Part shown: piece by piece, positions 3,163-64,000 of the stretch
How positions within the stretch are numbered: the first letter of the stretch is position 1
Layout: each line of letters begins with the position of its first letter
Virus record (IMG/VR): IMGVR_UViG_3300048851_000184
Coordinates: 8,388-72,387 of that record
DNA: 64,000 nt
Strand: one strand, 5' to 3'
From: a virus
Taxonomy: Duplodnaviria > Caudoviricetes
The notes under the pieces: model-generated
Databases searched by the model: none
What the model saw: only the letters and a program-made list of their open reading frames with translations
What the model was told of the DNA's origin: nothing
Translations under genes and position numbers: made by a program

Positions 3163-6100
3163 GTGGAAAAGTCCGTCTCGATCCGCATGGGCACGACCGG
3201 CAAGGCCGATGTCACCCGCACCTTCGACGAGATCGCCGCGTCTGGTGACGCGTCAGCGAAGCGCTGGAGCAAAGCCTACGAGCGGGCCGGCGAGGACGTA
3301 GAAGCGGCAATCCAGCGGCAGGCGAACGCTGCCGCCAAGATCGCTGCGATCGCGCCTCAGTCGCCCGTGCAGATGCGGATTGCGGATACGAACGGTACCG
3401 GGTTCGGCCAGTGGGAGGGCTCGGCCCGCCAGTCTGCCGCGGCGTTCAAGGACCTGATCGCCGCCGAAGAGCAGCTGGACGCGCGCACTCGCGCACTGGT
3501 GAGCGCGATCGATCCGGCGTTCGCGGCGCAGCAGCGCTACAATGCCGAGATGCGGGACGCGGTCGGCCTCTACGACGCCGGTCGCATCAGCCTGGATCAG
3601 TTCCTCGCTGCCGAGCAGCAGGCCGCAGCCGTGCTGGACAAGGTCGCGGGGATCACGCGCACCGCGGCGGCTGAGACGGCCGAGCTGACGGCAATGCAGG
3701 CCCGCGTCGAGGCGGCCTCAGGTACCGGATTCGGCCAGTGGGAGGGGTCGGCAAAGCGCTCCGCTCTCGCAATGGGCGAGCTGCTCGCCGAAGAGGAGAG
3801 GCTGGAGGCGCGTACGCGCGCCCTGATCGCGGCGATCGATCCCGCTGCCGCCGCCCAGATGCGCTTTGACGCCGAGATGGCCACCGCGCGCGAACTCATC
3901 AGCCGGGGCGCGATCTCGCTGGACCAGTATGTCGCCAAGCTGCGGCTTGAGCAGGACGCGCTGGACGACGCGACGGCTGCGCACATGCGCGCGAACGTGT
4001 CTACGGGCCAGCTTCGCGCAGGCGGGCAACAACTTGCCTATCAGATTGGCGACATCACGCAGCAGTGGGCGCTCAACACGCCGCTGATGGTGATCTTTGC
4101 CCAGCAGGGTGGGCAGGTGGTGCAGGCGCTGGACCTGATGACGGGCGGCGCAAATCGCTTCATCTCGTTCATGGCTGGCACCTGGGGCGCTGTGCTGCTG
4201 GGCGCAGTGATGATCATCGGGCAGATGGTCAGCCGTTCCAACGACGCGGGAAATGCGGCCGACGAACTAGCAAAGCGCCAGCAGTCGCTGTCCGGCATCA
4301 TCGACAAGACGACGGGCAGGATCAAAGAGCAGAACGCGGCCCTGCTGCAGAACGCCATCCTGGCGGCGCGCAAGGACGTGAACGAAACGCGCAAGGCGTA
4401 CATCGAGGCGCGAACTGACTTCGTAAACACAGCGGTCCCGATCCCCGGCTTGGCGCAGCTGCAGCAGCAGTTCGCCCGGGGCGAGAAGAGTGCCGCCCAG
4501 GTATCGTCTGAGCTGGCGAACCTGACCCGTGAGTTCAAATACGGGACGACGGGCTACAAGCAGGTTGAGTACCTGCAGGGGCTGCTCAAGAGTGTGGTGG
4601 ACACCGCGCGCACGGGTGTCAGCGCCCAAGCGCAGTCCCGGCTGCTGGGCGGTGCCGGGAAGCCCGGGGATGCCGCGATCGCGTTTGGCGACTTCAGCGC
4701 TGGACGGAACGAGCCGCCGAACACCGCCATCCTTGATGCCCAGGCTCGCTTGCAGGCCGGCAACCTGAGCAAGCTTCAGGAGGCGCAGGAAAAGCTCACC
4801 ATCGCCCGCGAGAAGGCAAAGGACGAACTCGACAAGGGTATCATCACCCAAGATCAGTATACGGCCCGGCTGGCGCCGCTGGAGGCGGCGGTAAACGCCG
4901 CCCGCGAGAAGACCGACCGGCACGGGCAGTCGCTCGCTCGCCAGGCCGCGGCGATGGACGTAAACGCGCAGGCATCCCTGGATCTGGCGCGGGCATATCT
5001 GGTTGGCGGGGATGCCGCGCTGCGTGCCGAGGCGGCCCGCAAGGGCCTGACCGACGCGACCCGTCGCGGGATCGACACCGACGCGCAGGTGCAGCGCCAG
5101 CTGCAAGTGATGGTCGGCGAGCAGGTGGCGAACGGCGCAAAGTCCGTTGCCCAGCTGCGCGAAGAGACCGAGGCGCGCGCCGCTGTCCGCGCCCAAGTGC
5201 TGGCTGGCACGCTGCCGGTCGAGGGTATGGCGCAGGCGTTGTCCGACGAGGCGGCGCTACGTCCCCTGCTCAAGCTCCAAACCGTCGCCCAGGGCGAGGC
5301 GTTGACCGAACTGACGAAGGTGATCGAGGCCTACCGCAAAGCGCTCGCCGACGCGCACGAGGAGGAGGCCAAGAGCAGCGCGGCCGTCGAGACCAAGGCG
5401 TCCACGGACCGCTTCGCCGAGACGATCGAGAGCATCCGAGATCTCGGTAAGGATCCGCTGCAGCGCGCCCTCGATGCCGCCCGGCGCGCGGCAGAACGCG
5501 ACGCGGATGCCAAGAAGCTGACGGGTGAGGACCGGACGGGGTTCGTGGATGCCCGGATCAACGAGGCCCGCGCCACCGAAGGGTATCGCCGAGCGCAGTT
5601 CTACGTCAGCACCGCGGACGATCAGCGGGATTCGCTGGAGATGGCGAAGCTCGACCTCTCGCTCGCGTCGGCTGGCAACGATGAGCGCGATCGCGCGGTG
5701 TCGAAGCTGGACCTGATCCTGCGCATGAAGCGCGAGGGGATCACCGCCGACAGCGAGGAAGGTCGCAAGCTGCTGGAGAACCAGGAGCACCTCGACGGGG
5801 TTGCCACCCAGGCGAAGCTCGCCGCGGCTGGCTTCCAGGAGCTGCGCGACTTCGGCAGCGACTTCGTCGACACGGTGCTGTCCGAGGATACCTGGTCGAG
5901 CTGGGGCAACGCCGGCAAGACGATCCTGAACATGCTCAAGAGCGAGTTCGTGAAGCTCGCGCTGCTGAACCCGATCAAGAACCTGCTCAACGGCGACAGG
6001 GCGCTGCCGACCCTGAGCGGCCTGGTCGGCAAGGTGGGCAGCCTGTTCGGCAAGCCGGGCAACAATGCGGCTGGCACCGAGTGGTGGTCGGGCGGAGCGA

Positions 6101-6384
6101 CGTACCTAGCCGAGCACGGTCCCGAACTCGTCAACCTGCCGCAGGGCTCCAGGGTGACACCGGCCGGCGAGACGCGGCGACTGCTCGGCGGTGGCGGGAT
6201 GATGGGAGGCGAGATGAAGCTCAAGCTGGAACTCACCCCTTCGTCCTACTTCGATGCGCGCGTAGTCTCGGTCAGCGGCCCGCTGGTGGCGCAGGGCGCA
6301 ACAGCGGCTGCGGCCGGAGGGGCGCAGATGGCTGAGGCGGAAAGCATGGCCGCTGGCGCGCGCCGTCTGGGGCGGTTCCGCTGA
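3163..6384 (+). CDS. Tail tape measure protein (1073 aa)
   Basis: Long Ala-rich helical protein after G-T; GTG start with gaggagg RBS. Confidence 0.92.
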   Translation: MEKSVSIRMGTTGKADVTRTFDEIAASGDASAKRWSKAYERAGEDVEAAIQRQANAAAKIAAIAPQSPVQMRIADTNGTGFGQWEGSARQSAAAFKDLIAAEEQLDARTRALVSAIDPAFAAQQRYNAEMRDAVGLYDAGRISLDQFLAAEQQAAAVLDKVAGITRTAAAETAELTAMQARVEAASGTGFGQWEGSAKRSALAMGELLAEEERLEARTRALIAAIDPAAAAQMRFDAEMATARELISRGAISLDQYVAKLRLEQDALDDATAAHMRANVSTGQLRAGGQQLAYQIGDITQQWALNTPLMVIFAQQGGQVVQALDLMTGGANRFISFMAGTWGAVLLGAVMIIGQMVSRSNDAGNAADELAKRQQSLSGIIDKTTGRIKEQNAALLQNAILAARKDVNETRKAYIEARTDFVNTAVPIPGLAQLQQQFARGEKSAAQVSSELANLTREFKYGTTGYKQVEYLQGLLKSVVDTARTGVSAQAQSRLLGGAGKPGDAAIAFGDFSAGRNEPPNTAILDAQARLQAGNLSKLQEAQEKLTIAREKAKDELDKGIITQDQYTARLAPLEAAVNAAREKTDRHGQSLARQAAAMDVNAQASLDLARAYLVGGDAALRAEAARKGLTDATRRGIDTDAQVQRQLQVMVGEQVANGAKSVAQLREETEARAAVRAQVLAGTLPVEGMAQALSDEAALRPLLKLQTVAQGEALTELTKVIEAYRKALADAHEEEAKSSAAVETKASTDRFAETIESIRDLGKDPLQRALDAARRAAERDADAKKLTGEDRTGFVDARINEARATEGYRRAQFYVSTADDQRDSLEMAKLDLSLASAGNDERDRAVSKLDLILRMKREGITADSEEGRKLLENQEHLDGVATQAKLAAAGFQELRDFGSDFVDTVLSEDTWSSWGNAGKTILNMLKSEFVKLALLNPIKNLLNGDRALPTLSGLVGKVGSLFGKPGNNAAGTEWWSGGATYLAEHGPELVNLPQGSRVTPAGETRRLLGGGGMMGGEMKLKLELTPSSYFDARVVSVSGPLVAQGATAAAAGGAQMAEAESMAAGARRLGRFR

Positions 6385-6986
6385 TGCCCGTCGCGATCCC
6401 GCACCTGCGGATCCGGTCGTTCGCGCTGCGCCCGCGCCTGTTCAGCGGTGAGCAGGAGGGCGCACTCGGTGGGCCGGACCTGCCGATCCCGAGGCCAGGC
6501 GATCGGTTCGCGGTGGACGTGACGACGACGCAGTTCCGCAACGACGCCGAAGGGCGGCTAATGGCGGCTGCGCTGTTCGAGGCGAGCAACAGCAGTGCGA
6601 TCATGCGGATCGTGCAGCCGAACCGCAGCGGCCGCTCCCCCGGCTATGCGGTGGCGGTCGACGGCACAGACCAGGGCGGCATGACGCTGTCCCTGCGTGG
6701 GCTCCAGGCAGGTGCCTCGCTTACGCGCGGCAACTTCTTCAGCATCGTCCACGGCGGGCAGCGCTACGTGCACATGATCGCCTGCGCCGGACAGCTGGTG
6801 GTGCCGGTGAGCGGCAAGGTTGCACTGCCGATCTGGCCCATGCTGCGGTTTCTCACCGTCGACGGCGAGCCCGCTGAGTTCGTGGCCCCGATGATCGAGG
6901 GCAAGCTGCTGGGGTTCGACAAGGGCGCTAGCTTCGTGCGGGCGAAAACCGAGCCGCTGTCTTTCAGCATCCAGGAGCGGGCATGA
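6384..6986 (+). CDS. Putative distal tail protein
   Basis: 200 aa right after tape measure; homolog at 51438. Confidence 0.65.
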   Translation: MPVAIPHLRIRSFALRPRLFSGEQEGALGGPDLPIPRPGDRFAVDVTTTQFRNDAEGRLMAAALFEASNSSAIMRIVQPNRSGRSPGYAVAVDGTDQGGMTLSLRGLQAGASLTRGNFFSIVHGGQRYVHMIACAGQLVVPVSGKVALPIWPMLRFLTVDGEPAEFVAPMIEGKLLGFDKGASFVRAKTEPLSFSIQERA

Positions 6987-8052: not shown

Positions 8053-10644
8053 ATGGCGAAAGCTCTTCGGACGGCGGCGTTCGTCGTCGGCGCTGTCGCG
8101 CTTGCTGCAACTGGCGTCGGTGCGGCTGTGTCGCTAGGCGCCCTTGCCGCCAGCGCTACCACTGCCACGATCGCGACTGTCGCCACGGTGGCGCAGGTCA
8201 GTGCGGCCGCGCTCTCGATCGCGTCGGCCGCCGCCACGCCGAAGGGCTCGCTTGGCGGCAACCCGACCGAGTTCACGATCGATAAGGAATCCGGGCTGCC
8301 GTACGCGATCGGGCGGACCTATTCGGCGGGCAAGGTCGTGCACCGCCAGTATTACGGGTCGAAGAACAGCCTGGAGAGCTGGGTCGCCGTCCATAGCATC
8401 GGCCCGATCAAGAGCCTCGGCCCGTTTCAGGTCGAGAAGGCTACCGTCAGCTTCTCCAATCGCGCAGCTCTCGGCACGTATGCCGGGTATATGTGGCTGG
8501 ACCAGCAGCTGGGCGCATGCCCCGAAAGCCGGGCCCTGCAAGGTCCGCAGGGGAATTTCCCCGGCTGGACCGCGGCGTCGAAGCTGTCCGGGCTCGCCGC
8601 GGATCTCTGGACGTTGAAGTTCGACACCAAGGGCAAGAAGTATCCCAACGGCGTGCCAGAGCGCGGCCGCATCCTGGAAGGGGTGTTCGTCTACGATCCC
8701 CGCCTCGATAGCACCTATCCGGGCGGTGCGGGCGCCTGCCGGCTGGGGCAGGAGGCGACCTACGTCTACAGCGAGAACCCGGCACTGCACGCACTCACCT
8801 GGGCCTTCGGTCGCGTGCAGAATGGCGTCCTGATCGCTGGCGGCGGCATGAAGCTGGTCGGCATTGACCTGCCGCCATTCGTCGAGTGGGCGAACGTCTG
8901 CGAGGCGAACAACTGGAAGGTCGGCGGCGTCGTCTACACGAGCGCCGACAACGGCTGGGACATCCTGAAGATGATCTGCCAGGCGGGCGGCGGCGAGCCG
9001 ATGCCGGTCGGCGGCCAGCTGTCGGTGACCTTCAATGCTCCGCGGGTGTCGATCGGCACGATCACCAGCGCCGACATTACCATCAGCGACGTCGACGTGC
9101 CCGGGACCGCCTCGCGCCGCGCGCGCCGCAACACCGTGATCCCGAAGGTGCGGCTGGAGAGCCACGGCTGGCAGATGGTGCCGCTGAACGCGATCGCGAT
9201 CCCCGACTATGTCGCCGTCGATGGCGGCAGCAGGCCGAGGGAGATCGAGTTTCCGCTGGTTCAGCAGGTCGACCAGGGCGCGCAGCTGGGCCTTTATGAG
9301 ATCCTGAATGGCCGGGAGCTGGAGGGCATTCTTCTTCCCTGCAAGGCGACGATGATCGGGTACCGGCCGGGCGATTGCCTGACGGTGGACATCCCGGAGG
9401 CGGCGCTGGTCGGTCGTGACGTGGTGGTGCGCACGCGGGAGATCGACATGGGAACGGTCGGCGTGACCTTCACCTGCCGATCCGAGACCGCATCAAAGCA
9501 CAGCTTCGCGCTCGGCAAGGGCGGCACGGCACCGCCGACGCCGGACCTGTCGATCCCGACCGTGGACCTAAGCGCGCCGGATGCCGCCGACTGGACGGCC
9601 AATGGGGCGGTGCTGAGCGCCAACGGCGTTTCCTTCCCCGCGGTGATCGTCACCGGCGCGACCGACGACCGGCCTATGGCGGGCGTGCTGTTCGAATACC
9701 GGCCCTATGTCGCCGGTACGGATCCGGAAGCCGGCTGGAGCGGCGGCGGCATCGACGGGCCGGGGATCACCCGCAAGGAGATCACTAGCGTCCGGTCCGA
9801 CACGCAGTATGAGGTCGCGGTGCGCTACATGGTGGCCGGCACCTACAGCGAGCGCCTGGTGTTGGACCCCGTCACGGCCGGCGTGTTCAGCGCCGCCGGC
9901 GGCACCCAGGCCGCCATCGCGACGTCGTTCCCGATCGGCCTGGCGATTGCCGCCGCCGATACTGGTGTGGTGACGATCAGCGCCCACACCCGCCGCTATA
10001 CCGACGGCCATCCGGACGTGGCGGTCGCCGGCGCCGCGATCGAGACGGGCCTGGCTCCGGGCGCGTTCCGGGCCATCGGGTACGACGACGAGGAGCGCAC
10101 GGGCGGCGCGGTGGCGTACCAGCTGTTCGAGGACGACATCGATGCCCGCGCGGCGCCGGATCACCCGGGCCGGCACTACCTGGGCTACGCGATCATTCCG
10201 ACTGCCGGCAGCCCGCCGTCGAACGGGGGCGGGGCCACGCCGCCGGGTGGGCAGTGCGTGACGGTCGACACGCCGATCCTGATGGCGGACGGCACCGAGA
10301 AGCCGGCGGGCGAGATCGACGCCGGCGATCGCGTCCGCACTCGGCACGAACTTCGGCTGAACGAGACGGCCGGGGGCTGGGGCATCTTCTCGGTCGAAGC
10401 CATCGAGATCGCGGACAGCGAGGATGTCTGGCAGGTGACGATCGACGGCCGCGAACTGCGCGCCACCGGCGACCACCTCATCTACACCGGCGCCTGGGTG
10501 AAGATGCGCGACGTGGGCGGGCAAATTCCGGGCTCACACCGGATCGTCAAGATGACCGTGACCGATGCCCACACCTACGTCTCCAACGGCATCCTCTCGC
10601 ACAACATCAAGATGAACCAGCCGGAACAGCCGAGCCAGGTCTGA
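8053..10644 (+). CDS. Central tail/host-specificity protein (gpJ-like) with C-terminal Hint domain
   Basis: 863 aa; hydrophobic Ala-rich N-terminus, YDPRLDSTY and ENPALH motifs, FN3-like segment, terminal Hint. Confidence 0.88.
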   Translation: MAKALRTAAFVVGAVALAATGVGAAVSLGALAASATTATIATVATVAQVSAAALSIASAAATPKGSLGGNPTEFTIDKESGLPYAIGRTYSAGKVVHRQYYGSKNSLESWVAVHSIGPIKSLGPFQVEKATVSFSNRAALGTYAGYMWLDQQLGACPESRALQGPQGNFPGWTAASKLSGLAADLWTLKFDTKGKKYPNGVPERGRILEGVFVYDPRLDSTYPGGAGACRLGQEATYVYSENPALHALTWAFGRVQNGVLIAGGGMKLVGIDLPPFVEWANVCEANNWKVGGVVYTSADNGWDILKMICQAGGGEPMPVGGQLSVTFNAPRVSIGTITSADITISDVDVPGTASRRARRNTVIPKVRLESHGWQMVPLNAIAIPDYVAVDGGSRPREIEFPLVQQVDQGAQLGLYEILNGRELEGILLPCKATMIGYRPGDCLTVDIPEAALVGRDVVVRTREIDMGTVGVTFTCRSETASKHSFALGKGGTAPPTPDLSIPTVDLSAPDAADWTANGAVLSANGVSFPAVIVTGATDDRPMAGVLFEYRPYVAGTDPEAGWSGGGIDGPGITRKEITSVRSDTQYEVAVRYMVAGTYSERLVLDPVTAGVFSAAGGTQAAIATSFPIGLAIAAADTGVVTISAHTRRYTDGHPDVAVAGAAIETGLAPGAFRAIGYDDEERTGGAVAYQLFEDDIDARAAPDHPGRHYLGYAIIPTAGSPPSNGGGATPPGGQCVTVDTPILMADGTEKPAGEIDAGDRVRTRHELRLNETAGGWGIFSVEAIEIADSEDVWQVTIDGRELRATGDHLIYTGAWVKMRDVGGQIPGSHRIVKMTVTDAHTYVSNGILSHNIKMNQPEQPSQV
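10255..10605 (+). other. Hint (intein-like) domain, 117 aa
   Basis: Begins CVTVDTPILMADG, has block-B TGDH, ends TYVSNGILSHN. Confidence 0.88.
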
Positions 10645-19513: not shown

Positions 19514-19592
19514 AACTGCCTGATGTTCGTCAGCTGTTCCGCGGTTGTAAGGGATTTTGCGAGGGCTTTCCCTCCGTGACCGCACGAACGAT

Positions 19593-20238: not shown

Positions 20239-20328
20239 GGAGAGGTGCCGGAGTGGTCGATCGGGGCGGTCTCGAAAACCGTTGAGCCCGCAAGGGTTCC
20301 GAGGGTTCGAATCCCTCCCTCTCCGCCA
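20239..20328 (+). tRNA. tRNA-Ser(CGA), integration site of prophage B
   Basis: 90 nt cloverleaf GGAGAGG...CCTCTCC-G-CCA, anticodon loop CTCGAAA, long variable arm, GGTTCGAATCC. Confidence 0.97.
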
Positions 20329-20502
20329 ATACCGTATCCGCACGCGTGCGCAGCGGTTCACTCCCCCTTGAAACTCAGCGATTTCCCGGCTTGATGAGTG
20401 CCGGGATTGTTCGCAGCCGTTCACCCGCGTTCACCGCCCCACGCGGTATTGCGCACGGTATCGGATCGCGGGCGTACGGTATCGAGCCGGAGAAGGTGCA
20501 CC

Positions 20503-22065
20503 ATGCTGACCGACGCGAAGGCGAAAGCCGCCAAGCCTCGCGACAAGGCGTACAAGCTCGCCGATGCCGAGCAGCTCTACCTGCACGTCTCCACGTCGGG
20601 CAGCCGGCTCTGGCGGATGGACTATAAGCACGGCGGCAAACGCAAGACGCTGTCGTTCGGCGCCTACCCCACGGTCACCCTGTCGGACGCGCGCCGAAAG
20701 CGCGACGAGGCGAAGGCGCTGATCCGCGATGGCTTCGACCCCGCCGTCGAGCGTCGGCTCACCGCCAAGGCGCAGGAGGCCGATCACGAGGCGACCTTCG
20801 AGCGGATCGCCCGGCGCTGGTGGGAGCGAAACAAGCCCCGCTGGTCGGCGCGGCATTCGGACGACGTGATCCAGTCGCTGGAGCGCGACGTCTTCCCGGA
20901 GATCGGCGGCCTGCCGATCGCGCGGTTGCGCGCGCCTCGGATCCTCGACCTCCTCCACCAGATCGAACGCCGCGGCTCCGTCGAGACCGCCAAGCGCATC
21001 CGCCAGCGGATCTCCGGCGTGTTCGGCTCCGCAATCGCTATGGGCATTGCGGACAGCGACCCGACCGCCAGCCTCAAGAACGAACTCCAGCCGGTCACGC
21101 GGCGCAGCAAGCAGCCGGCGATCACGGACCTCGACGGCGTGCGCCGCGTGCTCACCGACGCCGAGGCAACGCCCTCGCATATCATCACGAAGCTCGCGCT
21201 GCGCATGCTGGCGCTGACGGCCGTTCGCCCGGGCGAGCTGCGCGGCGCACGCTGGGAGGAGATCGACGGCGTCGACTGGACCCGGCAGCTGTACGGGCCC
21301 TATCTCGCGACCTGGACCGTTCCTGCCGCCCGCATGAAGGGCACCCTGGCGCGCAAGGAGGAGACCGGCGGCGACCATGTCGTGCCGCTGTCGATGGAAG
21401 CGATCGACGTGCTGCTGGCGATGCGGGACATCACCGGACGGCTGCCGATGATCTTCCCGAACCAGCGCAGCTCTCACCAGCCGATGAGCGAGAACGCTAT
21501 CGGGTACCTGCTGAACCGCGCCGGCTATCACGGCCGGCACGTCCCGCACGGCTGGCGCGCGGCGTTCTCCACCATCATGAACGAGCGGGCCAGCCGGGAG
21601 GGCAGGGCAGGCGATCGCGCCGTCGTCGACCTGATGCTGGCGCACGTGCCCAAGGATAAGGTCGAGAGCGCGTATAACCGCGCCGCCTTCATGCCGCGCC
21701 GGCGAGCGATCGCGCAGGAATGGGCGACGCTGCTGATGGAGGGGAAGCCGAACTCCGCAGCGCTGGTCGACCGGCCGTACCGGGATCCGGTGGTGGGGGA
21801 GTGGAGCGCCACCCGTCGCGAGTTCATGGACTGGGTGATCGGGCGAGCCCTGCCGCTGTTGCCGGACCATCCGGCCGAGGCCGTCGAGGCGTTCCTCGCC
21901 GACACCGAGAAGTACCAATGCGGCCGGCAGACGCTGTTCGGGCCGGGACGGCAGGCTGCGCTTCGGGATGCTCTACGCGGCGCCCTGGCGGCTGGACGCA
22001 CCGACGACGTCGAGCGGATCATCCGAACAGCGCCGGACCTTGCCGTGGATCCTGCGGCCGCCTGA
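20503..22065 (+). CDS. int: P4-like tyrosine integrase with about 100 aa C-terminal extension (520 aa)
   Basis: Arm-binding N-terminus MLTDAKAKAAKP..YKLAD..LYL; catalytic R (VRPGE), HGWR, LAH, AYNR. Confidence 0.95.
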   Translation: MLTDAKAKAAKPRDKAYKLADAEQLYLHVSTSGSRLWRMDYKHGGKRKTLSFGAYPTVTLSDARRKRDEAKALIRDGFDPAVERRLTAKAQEADHEATFERIARRWWERNKPRWSARHSDDVIQSLERDVFPEIGGLPIARLRAPRILDLLHQIERRGSVETAKRIRQRISGVFGSAIAMGIADSDPTASLKNELQPVTRRSKQPAITDLDGVRRVLTDAEATPSHIITKLALRMLALTAVRPGELRGARWEEIDGVDWTRQLYGPYLATWTVPAARMKGTLARKEETGGDHVVPLSMEAIDVLLAMRDITGRLPMIFPNQRSSHQPMSENAIGYLLNRAGYHGRHVPHGWRAAFSTIMNERASREGRAGDRAVVDLMLAHVPKDKVESAYNRAAFMPRRRAIAQEWATLLMEGKPNSAALVDRPYRDPVVGEWSATRREFMDWVIGRALPLLPDHPAEAVEAFLADTEKYQCGRQTLFGPGRQAALRDALRGALAAGRTDDVERIIRTAPDLAVDPAAA

Positions 22066-29462: not shown

Positions 29463-30170
29463 TTAGAGGTCCCTCGCAAAACGAATAACCCGACCGCCGA
29501 TTATCAGTTCGTCGGCGTCGACTTCGTAGTTGTCGATCGTCGGGTTGTCGGAAATCACGAGCACTCGCCCTCCCTTCAACGGGCGTAGTCGTTTGATCGC
29601 GGCACCGCCGTTGATTGATACGGCCCACACCCGATCAGCCTGGTTCAGGCGAGTCTGCGTGCTATCGATCCACACAAGGTCGTTGCTGTTGAGCGTTGGG
29701 TACATGCTGTCCCCCACGCCCCGAGCCAGCCGCAGCCGGTGCGGTGGGGTTCGCGTGAAACTACGGACGTAGCCAATGTCGAAAGTAACAGGCTCTTCCT
29801 CGATGTAGTCGTCCACCGTTGCTCCGGGACCCATCGGCAGAGACAGGTCTAGCTTGATGATCGGGACCGTCTCGTTGCCGTCTACCGTCCGAATGTTTGG
29901 TTGATCCGGGGCGTGCCTCGGCGCGCCGTCCTCTCTCGGATGGACAAGGTCAACGAGGTATTCTGGCTCGAATCCGAGCACCTGCTCCATAGCACGTAGG
30001 ACCTTGGGCCCGGGCCGTTTCACCTTCCCGCGCTCTACATCCCACAACGGCTTTCCGGTGGTTCCGAGCATCTTCCGCAGTTGCGAATCGAAGTGGTCGC
30101 GGGTGTGCGGCGCGCGGTCGATGGCAGCCGCGAGTGCCGTCTGAAGGGGGCTGCGTTCGTCTGTTGCCAT
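29463..30170 (-). CDS. cI: CI-like repressor (HTH plus S24 autopeptidase)
   Basis: GDSMYP catalytic Ser and AAIKRL Lys, N-terminal HTH, divergent from cro-like gene. Confidence 0.92.
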   Translation of the reverse strand: MATDERSPLQTALAAAIDRAPHTRDHFDSQLRKMLGTTGKPLWDVERGKVKRPGPKVLRAMEQVLGFEPEYLVDLVHPREDGAPRHAPDQPNIRTVDGNETVPIIKLDLSLPMGPGATVDDYIEEEPVTFDIGYVRSFTRTPPHRLRLARGVGDSMYPTLNSNDLVWIDSTQTRLNQADRVWAVSINGGAAIKRLRPLKGGRVLVISDNPTIDNYEVDADELIIGGRVIRFARDL

Positions 30171-48537: not shown

Positions 48538-51438
48538 GTGGAAAAGTCCGTCTCGATCCGCATGGGCACGACCGGCAAGGCCGATGTCACCCGCACCTTC
48601 GATGAAATGGCCGCTTCCGGTGAGGCATCGGCCAACCGGTGGAGCAAGGCCTACGACCGCGCCGGGCAGGATGTTGAAGCGGCGCTGCAGCGCCAGGCGA
48701 ACGCCGCCGCCAAGATCGCTGCCATCGTTCCGCAGACCGCGATCCAGATGCAGGCGAACGCCGCGGCTGGTTCGAACACGCGCTTCGGCGGTGGTTATGC
48801 GGCAGGCGCTGGTGAGCGGAACGGACTAGGCGAGGGATCAGCACGCGCATCCGCTGCGGTGTTCAAGGAGTTGATCGCCGCCGAGGAGCAGCTTGAGGCG
48901 CGCACCCGGGCTTTGGTTGCCTCGATCGACCCCGTCTGGGCGGCTCAGCAGCGATTCAACGCTGAGATGGAAAACGCGCGCGATCTGATCAGCAACGGCA
49001 AGATCTCGCTCGACCAGTATGTCACCAAGCTGGGGCAGGAGAGGGCCGCCCTCGACAGCGCGACGGCCGCCCAACAGCGCGGGGCAGTATCCGCCGGCGC
49101 CCATCGGGCGGCGATGCAGGGGCTGTCGTTCCAGGCGCAAGACGCGATGACGCAGCTATCGATGGGCGCCAACGTCTTCAACGTCATTGCGGTGCAGGGA
49201 GCCCAGGCTGCGGGGCAGATGGCGAACCTGGAGGGGAAACTTGGCTCTGCCGCCAAGTTCATGATCGGGCCTTGGGGGCTGGCGATCACCGGCGGGCTGA
49301 TGTTGCTCGGGATGCTGACAGATCGGCTGATGCAGAGCCGCCAGGCCTCGGAAGCAGACGAGGCGGCAAAGCGCGGAGAGGCTGCGGGCGCAAACACGTT
49401 GGAGGGCGCCATCAAGGCGCTCAACGACATTACGGGAGTTCACAACCGGTCTCAGGCCGTCGCGATTGATCTGGCGATCGGCAACGCCGACGCCATGCTC
49501 AAGCAGGCTGAGGCTACCCGGGCAGCGACCGCCGCCCGCCTCGCCGACATGAAGGCCCTGCAGGCGGCCAACCGGCAACGCGCGTCTGGCCCAGGGCAGA
49601 ACTCGGAAATGGTCGCGATCGGATTGCCTGCCGGCGACGAGGCGATCGCGAGCGTAGAAGCGACGCTCTCCAAGCTCGACGCCAGCATCATCCGCGGACA
49701 GAATGCCGTGCGGTTCGCGCGGGCGGAGTCCTCCCGCCAACATGCGGTGCAAACGGCGGACGAACTTGACCGGAACTCCCGGCTGCGGATCTCGACCGGA
49801 GCGGTGGCGGATGCTGAGCGCAACCTCGCGAAGGTCCGTGAAGAGGGGCGCTCACAGCTCGCCGCCAAGAAGATCACGCCTGAGGAATACGCCGCCAAGA
49901 GCGACGAAGCCGAGCGGCGGCTGGTAAAAGCGCAGGAGGACGGCCGGCATAGCTCCGATCGCCGCGCGGCATCTCTGGGCCGGCAGGCCGCGGCTATGGA
50001 GGTCAACGCCGACGCCTCGCTGGAACTGGCGCGGGCATATCTGGTTGGCGGTGCTGCCGCGCTGCGGGCTGAGGCTGCCCGCAAGGGCCTGACCGACGCG
50101 ACCCGCCGCGGGATCGACTCGGACGCGCAGGTAGCGCGCCAGCTGCAGGTGATGGTCGGCGAGCAGGTAGCCAACGGCGCAAAGTCCGTCGCCCAGCTGC
50201 GCGAGGAAACCGAGGCCCGCGCCGCTGTCCGCGCCCAGGTGCTCGCCGGCACACTGCCGGTGGAGGGCATGGCGCAGGCGTTGTCCGACGAGGCGGCGTT
50301 GCGGCCCCTGCTCAAGCTCCAGACGGTTGCCCAGGGCGAGGCGCTGACCGAACTGACGAAGGTGATCGAGGCCTACCGCAAAGCGCTCGCCGATGCGCAC
50401 GAGGAAGAGGCGCGGAGCGGGGCTGCCGTCGAGACCAGGGCGTCGAAGGACCGCTTCGCCGAGACGATCGAGAGCATCCGAGATCTAGGTAAGGATCCGC
50501 TGCAGCGCGCGCTCGATGCCGCCCGGCGCGCGGCAGAACGCGACGCGGATGCCAAGAAGCTGACGGGTGAGGACCGGACGGGGTTCGTGGACGCCCGGGT
50601 TAGCGAGGCTCGCGCCACCGAGGGGTACCGCCGGGCGCAGTTCTACGTCAGCACCGCGGACGATCAGCGAGATTCGCTGGAGTTGGCGAAGCTCGAACTT
50701 TCCCTCGCCGCATCTGGCAACGACGAGCGCGATCGCGCCATGGCGAAGCTGGAGATGATCCTCCGGATGAAGCGGGAAGGCATCACCGCCGACAGCGAGG
50801 AAGGCCGCAAGCTGCTGGAGAACCAGGAGCGCCTCGACGGGGTTGCCACCCAGGCGAAGCTTGCTGCCGCCGGCTTCAGGGAGCTGCGCGACTTCGGCAA
50901 CGACTTCGTCGACACGGTGCTGTCGGAGGATACCTGGTCGAGCTGGGGCAACGCCGGCAAGACGATCCTGAACATGCTCAAGAGCGAGTTCGTGAAGCTC
51001 GCCCTGCTGAACCCGCTCAAGAACCTGATCAACGGCGACAAGGCCCTGCCGACGCTGAGCGGCCTGGTCGGCAAGATCGGTAACCTGTTCGGCCCCAAGG
51101 GTGTCGGCAACAACGCCGCGGGCACCGAATGGTGGTCGGGCGGCGCGACGTGGCTCGCGGAGAACGGGCCCGAGATCGTCAACCTGCCGCAGGGTTCGCG
51201 GGTCACGTCCGCAGCCGAGACGCGTCGGCTGTTCGCCGCGAATGATGCGGGCTCGCGTGCTGGCGGCCTGACCGTGATCGTCAACGCCCAGGATGCGGTG
51301 CTGGCGGATACGGTGCGCGGCTGGGTCTCGGAAGGTGTCGGGCTTGCATCGGCGCAGGGCGCAGCTGGCGGCGCAGCTATGGCGGAGGCGAATGACATGG
51401 CCGCAGGCACCCGCACGCTTGGCCGGTGGCGCCGCTGA
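48538..51438 (+). CDS. Tail tape measure protein (966 aa)
   Basis: Shares N- and C-terminal parts with 3163-6384, different middle. Confidence 0.92.
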   Translation: MEKSVSIRMGTTGKADVTRTFDEMAASGEASANRWSKAYDRAGQDVEAALQRQANAAAKIAAIVPQTAIQMQANAAAGSNTRFGGGYAAGAGERNGLGEGSARASAAVFKELIAAEEQLEARTRALVASIDPVWAAQQRFNAEMENARDLISNGKISLDQYVTKLGQERAALDSATAAQQRGAVSAGAHRAAMQGLSFQAQDAMTQLSMGANVFNVIAVQGAQAAGQMANLEGKLGSAAKFMIGPWGLAITGGLMLLGMLTDRLMQSRQASEADEAAKRGEAAGANTLEGAIKALNDITGVHNRSQAVAIDLAIGNADAMLKQAEATRAATAARLADMKALQAANRQRASGPGQNSEMVAIGLPAGDEAIASVEATLSKLDASIIRGQNAVRFARAESSRQHAVQTADELDRNSRLRISTGAVADAERNLAKVREEGRSQLAAKKITPEEYAAKSDEAERRLVKAQEDGRHSSDRRAASLGRQAAAMEVNADASLELARAYLVGGAAALRAEAARKGLTDATRRGIDSDAQVARQLQVMVGEQVANGAKSVAQLREETEARAAVRAQVLAGTLPVEGMAQALSDEAALRPLLKLQTVAQGEALTELTKVIEAYRKALADAHEEEARSGAAVETRASKDRFAETIESIRDLGKDPLQRALDAARRAAERDADAKKLTGEDRTGFVDARVSEARATEGYRRAQFYVSTADDQRDSLELAKLELSLAASGNDERDRAMAKLEMILRMKREGITADSEEGRKLLENQERLDGVATQAKLAAAGFRELRDFGNDFVDTVLSEDTWSSWGNAGKTILNMLKSEFVKLALLNPLKNLINGDKALPTLSGLVGKIGNLFGPKGVGNNAAGTEWWSGGATWLAENGPEIVNLPQGSRVTSAAETRRLFAANDAGSRAGGLTVIVNAQDAVLADTVRGWVSEGVGLASAQGAAGGAAMAEANDMAAGTRTLGRWRR

Positions 51439-59960: not shown

Positions 59961-60130
59961 GTCGCCCCGGCCCTTCGTGTTGCTGCCCGGGAGCCGGGGC
60001 GAGAGCGCGTAGGACAGACCCGCGCCCGATCCGAAGCTTGGACCTCAATACTTGCGAGGAAATGAACGCAGCACGGCTGCGAGGGCCGCGCCGTCCTCGC
60101 CCCCCCCCATTGCACCTGAAAGGACGAACC

Positions 60131-60688
60131 ATGGCAAAGACGGCGACCCAGCTGGTCGACGAGGTGATCGCGCGCGAGGGTGGTTACAGCAACCACCCTG
60201 CCGACCGGGGAGGCCCCACGAACTGGGGCATCACCGAGCAGGTAGCGCGCGCCTACGGCTACAAGGGCGACATGCGCAATCTGCTCCGCGAGACGGCGGT
60301 CGAGATCTACCTCAAGCGCTACTGGACCGGGCCCGGCTTCGACAAGGTCGCGCGCCGGGATGGGGCGCTGGCGGCAGAGATGTTCGACGCCGGCGTGAAC
60401 ATGGGGCCCGCCTGGGCCGGCAAGTTCCTGCAGCGCGCGCTCAACCTGCTGAACAACGGGGCCAAGCACTATCCCGACATCGCGGTGGATGGCGGTGTCG
60501 GCGCTATGACGCTGGCTTCGCTCGATGGCTACCTGCGGCAGCGGGATAGCGGCGAGGGCAGGGCGGTGCTGCTCTGGCTGGTACGCGCTTTCCGGACCGG
60601 CCGTTACGCGGAAATCGCGGAGGCGAACCGCACGCAGGAGGTGTTCCTCTACGGCTGGATTGCCCGCCAGGTGCGAGAGGCAGAATGA
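60131..60688 (+). CDS. Endolysin, glycoside hydrolase family 108 with peptidoglycan-binding domain
   Basis: EGGYSNHPADRGGPTNWGIT signature; LQRALN..DG.VG..TL. Confidence 0.92.
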   Translation: MAKTATQLVDEVIAREGGYSNHPADRGGPTNWGITEQVARAYGYKGDMRNLLRETAVEIYLKRYWTGPGFDKVARRDGALAAEMFDAGVNMGPAWAGKFLQRALNLLNNGAKHYPDIAVDGGVGAMTLASLDGYLRQRDSGEGRAVLLWLVRAFRTGRYAEIAEANRTQEVFLYGWIARQVREAE

Positions 60689-61125
60689 GCGTCGCGCTCG
60701 CACTGCTGCGCCGCTTCTGGTGGGCGCTGCCGATGCTGGTGCTGGGCGGGGCGCTGCTCGCCACCCGCGCGACGCTCGCCGATCGCACGGCAACGCTGCG
60801 CGCCGAGCGCTTCGCCTGGACGTCCGCGCTCGATGATGCGGAGAGGGCGCGGCTGGACGCGGAGCGCCGCTTCGCCAGCAACCTCGCTCAGGCGGTCACC
60901 AACTATGCCGACGGCCTGGCTGCGCGCCAGCCGATCATCGTCCGATCCACAAACACCGTGAGGGAATATGCGCAGACTGATGCTGGGCGCGTGCTGTGCC
61001 GCGATGCTGACCGGGTGCGCGCAGTCGACGCGCTCGATGCCGAGCTTGCCGAAGCTGCCGGATCCGCCAGCAGCGGCGCTGGAGCCGTGCGCCCCGACGC
61101 CGCAGCGCCGGCAGGCGGACGGTAG
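60685..61125 (+). CDS. Inner-membrane spanin (Rz-like)
   Basis: Homolog of 15490-15936. Confidence 0.8.
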   Translation: MSVALALLRRFWWALPMLVLGGALLATRATLADRTATLRAERFAWTSALDDAERARLDAERRFASNLAQAVTNYADGLAARQPIIVRSTNTVREYAQTDAGRVLCRDADRVRAVDALDAELAEAAGSASSGAGAVRPDAAAPAGGR

Positions 61126-61228
61126 CGCTACGGCCGCCGACGACGATGGGACGATTCGCGACGGGCGGTTCGATCTAGCGTCATGTGACGCGAAGCGACG
61201 GCTGCTGGTGGAGGCCTGGCCGCGGTAA
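60968..61228 (+). CDS. Outer-membrane lipoprotein spanin (Rz1-like)
   Basis: LTGC lipobox; homolog of 15779-16039. Confidence 0.85.
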   Translation: MRRLMLGACCAAMLTGCAQSTRSMPSLPKLPDPPAAALEPCAPTPQRRQADGSATAADDDGTIRDGRFDLASCDAKRRLLVEAWPR

Positions 61229-61257
61229 AATAGCTTTGACGGGCTAAGCGTGACGCG

Positions 61258-61285
61258 TTGCAATTCGCACCGCGCGAATTATGAT
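61258..61285 (+). promoter_or_regulatory. Sigma70-like promoter in front of a structured non-coding region
   Basis: TTGCAA N16 TATGAT. Confidence 0.5.
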
Positions 61286-61290
61286 CAAGG

Positions 61291-61690
61291 GCGCATCGGT
61301 TGCCCGAACCGTAGGAGGATGGAACCCCTACGTCTGGGTGGCGCCATGAGGGCAACCGATGGGCCTGCCGCGCAGAGCTGTGGACGCCCCGCCGGGTGAC
61401 CCGTTTAGGTCACGATCAGATATTGAAGCGACTCGAAGGGCCGCGCAAGATGCCTAGTCGCGACGAACCGGGCGTTCGTCGCTGCAGGCACTGCCCGACG
61501 CGTGGTTCTACCTAGGTTTCAAGCAAAAACCGCACGCGAAAATTTTTCTCTCGCATTCGTTAGTTCGGGGCGGATCTGGTTGTAAGCGAGAACGCTCCGC
61601 CGAACTTCGCCACACCTCCAGGTATCGGCGGCTCATCTGCATCGCTGCTTCGGTCGCGCAGCATCGAGAGCCGGGCTCCGGCAGCATGGG
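61291..61690 (+). ncRNA. Candidate structured non-coding RNA
   Basis: No credible ORF; several perfect stems, e.g. 61294-61305/61350-61361 (12 bp) and 61460-61468/61474-61482 (9 bp). Confidence 0.4.
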
Positions 61691-61707
61691 GCTCGACAGT
61701 CACCAAC

Positions 61708-61722
61708 GTTCCCGCAATGTTC
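61708..61722 (+). promoter_or_regulatory. Alphaproteobacterial LexA (SOS) box
   Basis: GTTC-CCGCAAT-GTTC, an exact GTTC-N7-GTTC, 5 nt before ATG 61728. Confidence 0.85.
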
Positions 61723-61727
61723 CTCTC

Positions 61728-62654
61728 ATGCCGCGCGACGATTCGGAGCTTCTTACCCTGGCGCTATCGGTCCTTGAGGAGGTGGCAGCGCGCCCGGTGC
61801 AGGAGAGTGCGGCTACCCCATCCGTCCGGTTGGCGCTGCGCACCCTTATGCGCGTGCTGCCGAACCGCGCGCCGCTGGACGAGTTCTGGCGCATCGCCCA
61901 GCAGCAAGCGACCGCACTGCCGGCCTGGGCGAACTGTCGCAGCGCCTATGTTGCCATCGAGCACGCCATGGTCGCGGCCGGCTGGCATGTGGCGGAGCTG
62001 GCCGTGCCGTGGCAAGGTTGGGCGATGTGCAACCGCTATCGCATGACGGAACGACAGGCAGAGGTGGCGGCGCGCTACGGGGCCGAGATTCCGTATCTGC
62101 CCGACATCACGATCCCATCGCCGGAGCTGTTCCCGAAGCGCGCAGCTTGGGTGGTGAAGCCGGCAAGCATCGACGGCGGGCGCGATCTCGCCTCGATGTC
62201 CTGGGGCTTCCCCCGGACGATGATGGGCGCACGCGGCAAGCCGGTGGAGACGCTCGTCACCAACGTGCGCAACCTCGATAGCCCGTTCTGGCGCACGGCG
62301 CTGGCGCGGCCGCTGCAGCGGTGCCTGGTGCCGGTCACCAGCTTCAGCGAGTACGGGCCCGGACCAAAGGGCGCGCGACCGCTGTTCTGGTTCGACGTGC
62401 CCTCCCGGCCGATCTTCAGCTTCGCCGGCATCTGGCGGGAATTGAAGGGGCAGGCGGTGTTCGCCTTCCTGACGACCGAGCCCAACTCAATTGTCGCGCC
62501 GATCCACCCGAAGGCAATGCCGCTGATCCTGCATGAGGAGGATGAGGATCGCTGGCTGGGAGGCGAGGTGGGCGACCTGGTGTCTCCGTTCCCATCCCAG
62601 CTGATGACAGTGGTGCAGGATCCAGACCCAAAGCGCGAACTCACCTGGCCCTAG
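61728..62654 (+). CDS. SOS response-associated peptidase (SRAP) with in-frame 99 aa N-terminal extension; canonical MCNRY start at 62025
   Basis: MCNRY, WGF, TNVRN, RCLVP..F.E, FAGIW, TTEPN..PIHPKAMP motifs. Confidence 0.9.
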   Translation: MPRDDSELLTLALSVLEEVAARPVQESAATPSVRLALRTLMRVLPNRAPLDEFWRIAQQQATALPAWANCRSAYVAIEHAMVAAGWHVAELAVPWQGWAMCNRYRMTERQAEVAARYGAEIPYLPDITIPSPELFPKRAAWVVKPASIDGGRDLASMSWGFPRTMMGARGKPVETLVTNVRNLDSPFWRTALARPLQRCLVPVTSFSEYGPGPKGARPLFWFDVPSRPIFSFAGIWRELKGQAVFAFLTTEPNSIVAPIHPKAMPLILHEEDEDRWLGGEVGDLVSPFPSQLMTVVQDPDPKRELTWP

Positions 62655-62667
62655 CCAGGCACTCCGA

Positions 62668-62841
62668 TCACCCCTTTCCCGGCAGATCGTCCTCGAGCAT
62701 CCACTCGCCCCGCTTTTTGACCGCCCGGATCCCGCAGCAGAGCGCGACCGCGGCTTGCTGCTCGCCTTCCTCGGCTGGCGTGGGCGCCCATTCGTGAGCG
62801 ATGCCGTCGCACTGGTAAAGTTCGGGCGGGGGTTTGGGCAT
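62668..62841 (-). CDS. 57 aa Cys-containing protein
   Basis: Hand-translated MPKPPPELYQCDGIAHEWAPTPAEEGEQQAAVALCCGIRAVKKRGEWMLEDDLPGKG; homologous DNA at 17657-17812. Confidence 0.65.
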   Translation of the reverse strand: MPKPPPELYQCDGIAHEWAPTPAEEGEQQAAVALCCGIRAVKKRGEWMLEDDLPGKG

Positions 62842-62872
62842 GCCCTGATGTAGGGGCGATGGGTGGCGATCG

Positions 62873-63109
62873 TCAGGGTGCCGCTTCCCGGAGCGCGTCG
62901 ATCATGGCCGTGTACACGTCGGCGACGAAGCTGCTCTCGCAGTCAACTGCGGCTGCAATCTGACCTTCATCGGGCTCGCGGATCGCCGCGATGACAGCCC
63001 GCACCTCCGGCACATAGTCCTGCCACAGCGGCTTGCCGTTCATGGTTGCGCCAGGAGGGCTACCGTCCAGCTCGCACAGCGCCCGCGCCGCGCGCTCGAT
63101 GGGACTCAT
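62873..63109 (-). CDS. Hypothetical phage protein (78 aa)
   Basis: IERAARALC..W..Y..EVRAVI.A.REP pattern. Confidence 0.7.
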   Translation of the reverse strand: MSPIERAARALCELDGSPPGATMNGKPLWQDYVPEVRAVIAAIREPDEGQIAAAVDCESSFVADVYTAMIDALREAAP

Positions 63110-63405
63110 GCGTCCAATCCTCTCCATTTCATCTCCCCCAGGAGCGCGTCGATGGGAGGATCCCCAACATCCCCGGCGGTCTGCTGGTATGCCGCCAGCA
63201 GGTCCGCATCATCGCGAGGCAGGAACGCCTTCTTTCCGTCGCCGATGTCGTAGAGGTGGTAGATGTAGTCTGGGCCGGGTCCGACCTTGCCCTCGGCGTC
63301 GCGCAACGCGAAGGACGCCCTCTTCGGGCGATATGCATAGACTATGCCCGCCTCTTCCTGCCGCTTGCCGTGGTTTGGGCCACCGTAGAACGGATACTCG
63401 TCCAT
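63106..63405 (-). CDS. Conserved hypothetical protein (99 aa)
   Basis: Homolog of 18508-18807. Confidence 0.75.
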   Translation of the reverse strand: MDEYPFYGGPNHGKRQEEAGIVYAYRPKRASFALRDAEGKVGPGPDYIYHLYDIGDGKKAFLPRDDADLLAAYQQTAGDVGDPPIDALLGEMKWRGLDA

Positions 63406-63516
63406 CTGCCTATCTCCCGTCCCCCTAGCCTGCGCTCCGGGCGGGCGGGGCGCAAGGGTGGTGGGACGGCTGCGTAGGTCGGCGTGGCCCGCTACCCAAT
63501 TTAGCAGGTCAGCATT

Positions 63517-63706
63517 GTTCGCGTTCCTCACGACGGAGCCGAACTCGATCGTCGCGCCGATCCACCCGAAGGCGATGCCGATGATCCGCATGAGGAGGAT
63601 GAGGAGCGCTGGCTACGGGGCGAGCTGGGCGACCTCGTGGCGCCTTTCCCTTCGCAGCTGATGACGGTTGTTCAGGATCCAGACCCCAAGCGGGAGCTGG
63701 CCTGGT
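63517..63706 (+). pseudogene. Frameshifted 3' fragment of a second SRAP gene
   Basis: Matches about 62458-62650 (FAFLTTEPNSIVAPIHPKAMP..); one-base deletion near 63587; no 5' part. Confidence 0.88.
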
Positions 63707-63814
63707 CAGATGACGCCGATGCTGCGGAGCAGCCACCAAGCGCCGCTTCCGATGGCGAGCACGGCCAGGCCGCCGATCAGTAGGGCCTCGCGCGCATAGC
63801 TTCACTCCGCCAGC

Positions 63815-64000
63815 TCACGGCTCGATCACCGCCCCCCACACGTCCGGCGCTTCCTCCCCTGGCCCTAGTAGCCGGAAGTAGAACGTCACCTGCGCACGCT
63901 CTGTGTCGACGTCTTCCCATCGCCAGACGCGGTAGCCTGGGCCGGCAGCCCTAGCTTTCGCGCGCCACGCGTTCTGTTCGGCCAACCAGTCCTGCGCCAT
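63815..64000 (-). CDS. Conserved hypothetical protein (61 aa)
   Basis: Homolog of 18034-18219. Confidence 0.75.
   Translation of the reverse strand: MAQDWLAEQNAWRAKARAAGPGYRVWRWEDVDTERAQVTFYFRLLGPGEEAPDVWGAVIEP

Follow-up and report, generated by a model that had tools for sequence, protein, structure and literature searches.

The window analysed here is a stretch of 64,000 nt from an IMG/VR provirus record (IMGVR_UViG_3300048851_000184, positions 8,388 to 72,387). A tRNA-Ser(cga) gene adjoins a tyrosine integrase; this region (20239-21687) is probably attL. A repeat of the tRNA-Ser end that could represent attR was looked for in the window and not found. An S24-peptidase protein, a possible self-cleaving repressor, is encoded beyond the integrase. 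A lysis cassette lies at 60038-61228 and consists of an endolysin and two overlapping ORFs, which by their arrangement and signal look like an i-spanin/o-spanin pair. Just downstream of this cassette lies a gene in which a small helical domain, here called N-ext, is fused in frame to an SRAP domain (Table 1). In the related loci L004, L005, L008, L009, L088 and L096, the fused gene is preceded, at a distance of 0.7-7 kb, by homologues of the spanin-like ORFs.

Table 1 Features of the fused gene and of the surrounding prophage, in positions of the window.
Feature	Position	Strand	Basis or remark
tRNA-Ser(cga)	20239-20328		Adjoins tyrosine integrase
Tyrosine integrase	near 21133-21687		
S24-peptidase protein	near 29484-29837	-	~8 kb beyond integrase
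Endolysin, GH108 + PG_binding_3	60038-60688	+	Pfam
Two overlapping ORFs after endolysin	60685-61125 and 60968-61228	+	Second with lipoprotein-like LTGC signal
Open frame	61686-62654	+	No internal stop
-35-like hexamer TCGACA, putative promoter element	61693-61698	+	9 nt upstream of LexA box; spacing shared with most fused loci
LexA (SOS) box GTTC-N7-GTTC, alphaproteobacterial	61708-61722	+	Exact match; probably overlaps -10 region
Long ORF, 308 aa + stop (N-ext domain, linker, SRAP)	61728-62654	+	Architecture recurs in ~22 protein clusters
N-ext domain, predicted four-helix bundle, unnamed family, motifs LAL..L / RLALR.L / FW	61728-61997	+	AF2 model, profile search
Linker, residues 91-99, ..VPWQGWA	61998-62024	+	pLDDT <50; TGG in place of the stand-alone TGA
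Internal in-frame ATG, adjoining the catalytic Cys codon (62028-62030) on its 5' side	62025-62027	+	ATG in 10/10 fused DNA loci
SRAP domain ORF, 209 aa + stop, complete YedK/HMCES-type domain	62025-62654	+	Pfam; alignment to solved SRAPs

The region downstream of the fused gene was also inspected. A second copy of the SRAP 3' end, truncated on its 5' side, was found at 63516-63705 (+), 1057 nt beyond the intact gene. With 62458-62648 it shares 84-89% identity, the differences falling mostly at third codon positions, and a single 1-nt deletion breaks its frame. It is probably the remnant of another allele or of an earlier prophage copy. Three small ORFs (57, 84 and ~99 aa) without family match lie between the intact SRAP and this relic, on the minus strand at 62668-63405. 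In L004, too, the fused gene is followed by the 84-aa ORF, at 92% conservation. An Rfam search over 60500-64000 gave no match.

ORF analysis confirmed what had been noted in an earlier reading of the letters and their translations (the sequence-only reading), namely that one uninterrupted frame runs from ATG 61728 through MCNRY at 62025 to 62654. The start was assigned to ATG 61728, which is conserved; in the relative L004, a stop codon lies directly 5' of the equivalent ATG. The 308-aa product is identical to database cluster P0001, and the same protein occurs on two contigs.

By its profile match and its alignment to solved structures, the C-terminal part is a clear member of the YedK/HMCES family (PF02586). 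The Pfam SRAP profile scored 78.9-80.5 bits, against a cut-off of 27.1, and was covered from position 1 to 202 of 214. The match spans residues 100-293 of the 308-aa protein and starts exactly at Met-Cys (ATG 62025, TGC 62028), which here stands in frame behind 99 codons. PHROG 1599 was matched by the same part (3e-33). The solved SRAP structures 2AEG and 2F20, both beginning with Met-Cys, were also aligned, 2F20 from its residue 1, and the alignment passes through the SFxE and IH.KAMP motifs. C101, E208 and H260 are invariant across 22 fused relatives.

In YedK, the alpha-amine of Cys2 acts as first nucleophile; when the N-terminus is blocked, crosslinking is lost and strand breakage follows (PMC9436759). 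Because SRAP chemistry needs a free N-terminal Cys, an N-terminal fusion that is in frame, conserved and selected looks contradictory on first view. Selection was evident on both sides of the linker. In pairs with dS of 0.4-1.8, dN/dS was 0.06-0.13 for the SRAP part and 0.15-0.33 for N-ext in the frame shared with SRAP; both parts are under purifying selection.

N-ext is, as judged by its profile and its predicted fold, a real protein domain that represents a new family. AlphaFold (AF2) placed its helices at residues 5-21, 31-41, 48-58 and 70-83 with a pLDDT of ~90, and modelled a confident N-ext fold and a confident SRAP fold joined by the low-confidence linker. The first 99 residues matched no family in Pfam, NCBIfam or PHROG, and no PDB sequence was matched. 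Structure searches were equally sparse: Foldseek against PDB returned only generic four-helix bundles (best E 0.84), the best VIA-align score (Z 9.1) was inside helical-bundle noise, the BFVD fold search gave no match and the protein atlas no usable one. A tblastn search against isolated phages and plasmids and a single-protein scan of genome contigs were likewise without match. A profile search among 1.84 billion proteins, however, recovered 199 representatives at E <= 1e-3. Nearly all were stand-alone proteins, either of 80-130 aa or of ~172-200 aa with an N-terminal zinc-ribbon-like CxxC...CPxxC. N-ext was present in 21 of 401 sampled Sphingomonadaceae genomes. An antirepressor role for it would be pure conjecture; the prophage has an S24-type protein of its own.

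A search with the whole ORF recovered full-length fused relatives of 297-339 aa in ~22 clusters, with 48-83% identity, alongside many SRAPs of 190-235 aa starting with MCNRY. The fused relatives come mostly from Sphingomonas prophages. Among their sources are isolates (Sphingomonas sp. 3-13AW, S. hankookensis and Leaf67), MAGs and viral contigs, and several of the fused loci are IMG/VR contigs. Ten fused loci were compared at the DNA level: the window, L004/L097, L005, L006, L008, L009, L033/L096, L086/L098, L088 and L092. Homologues are thus fused in ~22 clusters and ten loci and split elsewhere, which speaks against the proposition that a stop before MCNRY is present in all of them. The fusion is a recurrent cargo gene in a group of Sphingomonas prophages. 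In the SRAP-domain tree, short forms were nested among fused ones, and the fused P0069 and P0108 were placed elsewhere; the two states interconvert on this tree. In the library of papers searched, no description of the fused architecture, the N-ext family or its linkage to SOS and SRAP came up. Open frames upstream of SRAP in L011, L047, L058, L073, L141 and L144 were considered as further fusions and rejected, being GC-rich Arg/Pro/Ala runs and not N-ext.

Upstream of the gene, the perfect GTTC-N7-GTTC box pointed out in the sequence-only reading was found as an exact match, GTTCCCGCAATGTTC, at 61708-61722, with 5 nt between its end and ATG 61728. The motif is the SOS box of Caulobacter (PMC9578287). 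Four such boxes occur in the window against 1.2 expected by chance, which is weak evidence taken alone. Across relatives, however, the box is kept in all ten fused loci, its arms conserved and its spacer variable, and it is usually the sole such box in 12 kb. It also precedes the split zinc-ribbon-N-ext operons (5/5). The LexA control proposed earlier is therefore well supported by conservation. The other exact matches to GTTC-N7-GTTC or GAAC-N7-GAAC in the window are at 10348-10362, 19525-19539 and 49762-49776.

The spacing around the box is also shared. In nine of the ten fused loci, only 4-6 nt separate the box end from the first ATG, with no SD, and most of the loci have a TCGACA/TGGACA-like motif ~9 nt upstream of the box. 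A consensus promoter scan did not call this promoter. With the -10 inside the box, transcription would start at or beside the A of ATG 61728. By this geometry alone, the mRNA is probably leaderless.

Outside the fused loci, N-ext genes were repeatedly found close to SRAP genes. N-ext is located immediately upstream of SRAP in L007, L116 and L127, directly downstream in L085, and within 1-2 kb in L020-22, L059, L112 and L114. An N-ext-seeded census found SRAP within 1.5-1.8 kb in 4 of ~34 stand-alone loci (L112, L114, L116 and L127), a linkage far above chance given the few SRAP genes per 4-Mb genome. Being repeatedly SRAP-linked and often LexA-boxed, the N-ext family is a candidate for a role in abasic-site crosslinking, as partner or as regulator, in Sphingomonadaceae and in the prophages they carry.

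In L007 (Sphingomonas sp. Mn802worker), N-ext and SRAP even share a frame, parted by a single TGA and 36 nt. In L020, L021, L022 and L059, the boxed N-ext gene is 0.8-1.7 kb upstream of SRAP, with other genes inserted between them; the interval looks like a hot spot for insertions.

Some of these loci carry further genes. The L007 locus (5460-6954) is a three-gene SOS operon, with a LexA box ahead of an ORF of 67 aa, the zinc-ribbon-N-ext gene (172 aa) and SRAP. The 67-aa ORF had no family match and recurs (67-71 aa) in L021 and L022. Between N-ext and SRAP, L021 carries an AbiV-type HEPN gene on the opposite strand (5227-5826 (-); PF18728, 7e-14), and L059 a lipoprotein-like ORF.

Comparison of the stand-alone and fused genes points to how the fusion arose. 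Stand-alone genes of the zinc-ribbon type end in Pro-stop, the stop being TGA in L007, L021, L022, L059, L113 and L114 and TAG in L112. At the same aligned position, the fused forms have TGG in the lineage of the window and TGC in the lineages of L008/L009/L033/L086/L088/L092, both single-base neighbours of TGA, followed by four more codons and then ATG-TGC. The five-codon end of the linker is thus best read as the former stop codon and intergenic spacer. The same codons may serve as ribosome binding site of the internal start. The alignment therefore supports stop-codon loss as the origin of the fusion. The sequence-only reading had suggested a recent loss of the upstream gene's stop; the loss stands, whereas its being recent or strain-specific does not, given the ~22 clusters and the saturating synonymous divergence between them. 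The fusion is ancient and has been maintained.

Such an origin could have left no more than a neutral scar. Read-through would then have been tolerated without the link adding anything, and only the short SRAP, perhaps together with the N-ext part of the long form, would matter. This fits the clear single-base stop loss, the interconversion of fused and short forms on the SRAP tree and the separate N-ext and SRAP genes that work in other genomes. The persistence of the frame is harder to reconcile with it. In neither of the two deep lineages (TGG and TGC) was a stop regained despite dS >1, although TGG to TGA takes one transition. A frame kept open over such divergence argues that the long product is kept by selection and not merely tolerated, and we consider the neutral scar unlikely.

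The codon directly before the catalytic Cys was then compared among the fused forms. It is ATG in all ten fused DNA loci. These were gathered partly with a pattern that left this codon unspecified, and every chance non-SRAP match to that pattern had another codon there. At the protein level, 21 of the 22 fused clusters have Met at this place; the remaining one (P0108), the DNA locus of which was sought and not found, has Val. A further, degenerate fused form, P0129 (L145), also has Val, encoded by GTG. Both exceptions fit GTG starts, and GTG itself was seen in one of them.

The neighbouring codons behave differently. The codon just 5' of the ATG specifies a different residue in each of eight lineages. 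At codon -4, the third base is A or T in all eight (CAA, AAA, AAT, GAT), against a background of 16-39% in these ORFs, and the Gly codon at -3 is GGT or GGA in seven of eight, against 24%. Such rare A/T-ending codons in the former spacer suggest a constraint at the RNA level. Moreover, the nesting of short forms among fused ones in the SRAP tree implies that the same ATG works as an ordinary start.

Other features weigh against internal initiation. As the sequence-only reading had recognised, the stretch 5' of ATG 62025 offers only a weak AAGG; no more than AAGG/ATGG is available as a ribosome-binding signal, and the predicted anti-SD pairing is unremarkable, at about the 30th percentile of ORF positions. 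Neither a strong SD nor an open RNA structure was found consistently when tested. Local RNA structure at the ATG is weaker than average in six of eight lineages, clearly so in four, and stronger in the window itself. Many stand-alone Sphingomonas SRAP genes also have no clear SD, which weakens the objection from the weak SD but does not remove it. Retention of the ATG could also be due partly to inheritance or to a protease P1 preference, and the Gly-Trp that is invariant in the linker might just as well be a signal that acts in the protein. The earlier suggestion that one mRNA gives two isoforms by internal initiation thus gained from the invariant ATG, its hypervariable neighbour and the spacer constraint, and was held back by the ordinary anti-SD pairing and the lack of a strong SD.

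With these points weighed, the best reading of the sequences, which we hold with moderate confidence, is a pair of in-frame nested genes: a leaderless mRNA would give the long form, and a short SRAP would be translated from the internal ATG. The small SOS gene encoding N-ext lost its stop, so that its frame now runs via the former spacer into the SRAP gene that followed. Upon DNA damage, LexA would leave the box, and transcription would start at or beside ATG 61728. Translation of the 5' ATG on this leaderless mRNA would yield the 308-aa long form. In YedK the free alpha-amine of Cys is needed, so the uncleaved 308-aa form should not crosslink; its SRAP Cys is held in a peptide bond and could not form the thiazolidine. 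From ATG 62025, the 209-aa SRAP would be made, and removal of its Met by methionine aminopeptidase would leave the Cys as a free N-terminus.

Alternatively, only the long form could be made and remain uncleaved. It would then not depend on a free Cys and could, for example, bind ssDNA or abasic sites non-covalently while tethered to the target of N-ext, or its SRAP part would be a passenger. The frame kept open through dS >1 and the weak internal ribosome binding site are in line with this. So is P0129, in which the fusion persists although the conserved His and Asn are gone from the SRAP part. In the window lineage, by contrast, the catalytic residues are invariant and the SRAP dN/dS is 0.06-0.13, as expected only if the crosslinking chemistry is used, and this chemistry needs a free alpha-amine (PMC9436759). 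The conserved ATG would also be left unexplained. A protein acting solely in its long form is, in our view, distinctly unlikely. The P0129 locus (L145, IMGVR_UViG_3300010052_000218), in which the SRAP part has neither the conserved Asn after Cys nor the catalytic His, has a GTTC-N7-GTTC box 317 nt upstream of the Cys codon.

A free Cys could also be exposed by proteolysis. Only the 308-aa protein would then be translated, and cleavage between Met100 and Cys101 would free N-ext and an SRAP with its Cys exposed. The protein might cut itself, through an N-to-S acyl shift of the kind seen in Ntn hydrolases, or be cut by a protease of the host or the phage. On the basis of crystal structures, among them that of tagged YedK (2ICU), Aravind et al. 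2013 argued that SRAP domains remove sequence that precedes the Cys (PMC3765255). The linker is disordered in the model and hence accessible, the main fused clade shows its Gly-Trp without exception, and no strong internal ribosome binding site was found. Against this, Met1 of YedK is still lost when the active site is mutated, and its removal was ascribed to an aminopeptidase (PMC9436759). N-terminally His-tagged YedK could be purified on nickel and needed TEV protease to expose its Cys (PMC6821365). Self-cleavage also does not explain why P2 varies freely while P1 is restricted to residues that a start codon encodes (Met, or Val from GTG). In this very large family, few proteins have anything fused at the N-terminus; among the matches listed, this was seen in this lineage only. 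We regard such a zymogen as improbable, and its self-cleaving version is the least supported of the three readings put forward from the sequence alone (PMC9436759, PMC6821365).

In one version of it, the long form is a pro-protein made first after LexA release, kept inactive by the four-helix domain and activated by Met-Cys cleavage, self-catalysed or triggered by ssDNA or AP-DNA. Quite improbable as this is, it would, if true, revive the autopeptidase idea behind the family name and add a post-translational timing step to the shielding of abasic sites. Finally, the chance that a sequencing or assembly error removed the stop in this record only is close to nil, in view of the identical 308-aa protein on two contigs and the fused relatives in isolates, MAGs and viral contigs.

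If the nested-gene reading, with its leaderless long form and internal start, is true, the locus would be a compact example of a phage using a single promoter to set how two SOS products are proportioned. The lineage also offers a clean natural system in which a free Cys by internal initiation can be set against one by cleavage, and in which the old autoproteolysis proposal is open to a point-mutant test.

In-frame nested genes giving two products per ORF are familiar in phages, as in lambda C/Nu3, T7 gene 4A/4B and lambda S107/S105. The gene described here resembles them in having a conserved internal start in one frame, with a long product and a predicted short one that share their C-terminus. 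It differs in that only the short product would have a reactive N-terminal Cys, in its weak internal ribosome binding site and in being known from sequence alone.

Tum of coliphage 186 is a LexA-repressed gene at the prophage end, with an antirepressor part and a DinI-like part. Both genes are LexA-boxed, lie in the late or right prophage arm and combine a small helical module with a module of the SOS pathway. There is, however, no sequence or fold similarity between Tum and the fused gene.

Proenzymes of the Ntn-hydrolase type are comparable in that the nucleophilic Cys directly follows the bond to be cut, as in the original 'peptidase' proposal for SRAP, but published work on YedK argues against self-processing (PMC6821365, PMC9436759).

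The fused gene is also close to YedK and HMCES themselves. The C-terminal 209 aa correspond to a complete SRAP from Met-Cys onwards, with Glu and His conserved, and the gene is SOS-linked and carried by a temperate phage; an SOS link and occurrence in temperate phages were noted for the SRAP family by Aravind et al. 2013 (PMC3765255). Whereas Met-Cys is the very N-terminus of the characterised SRAPs and of the solved structures that were matched, that of this lineage lies 99 codons inside a conserved ORF.
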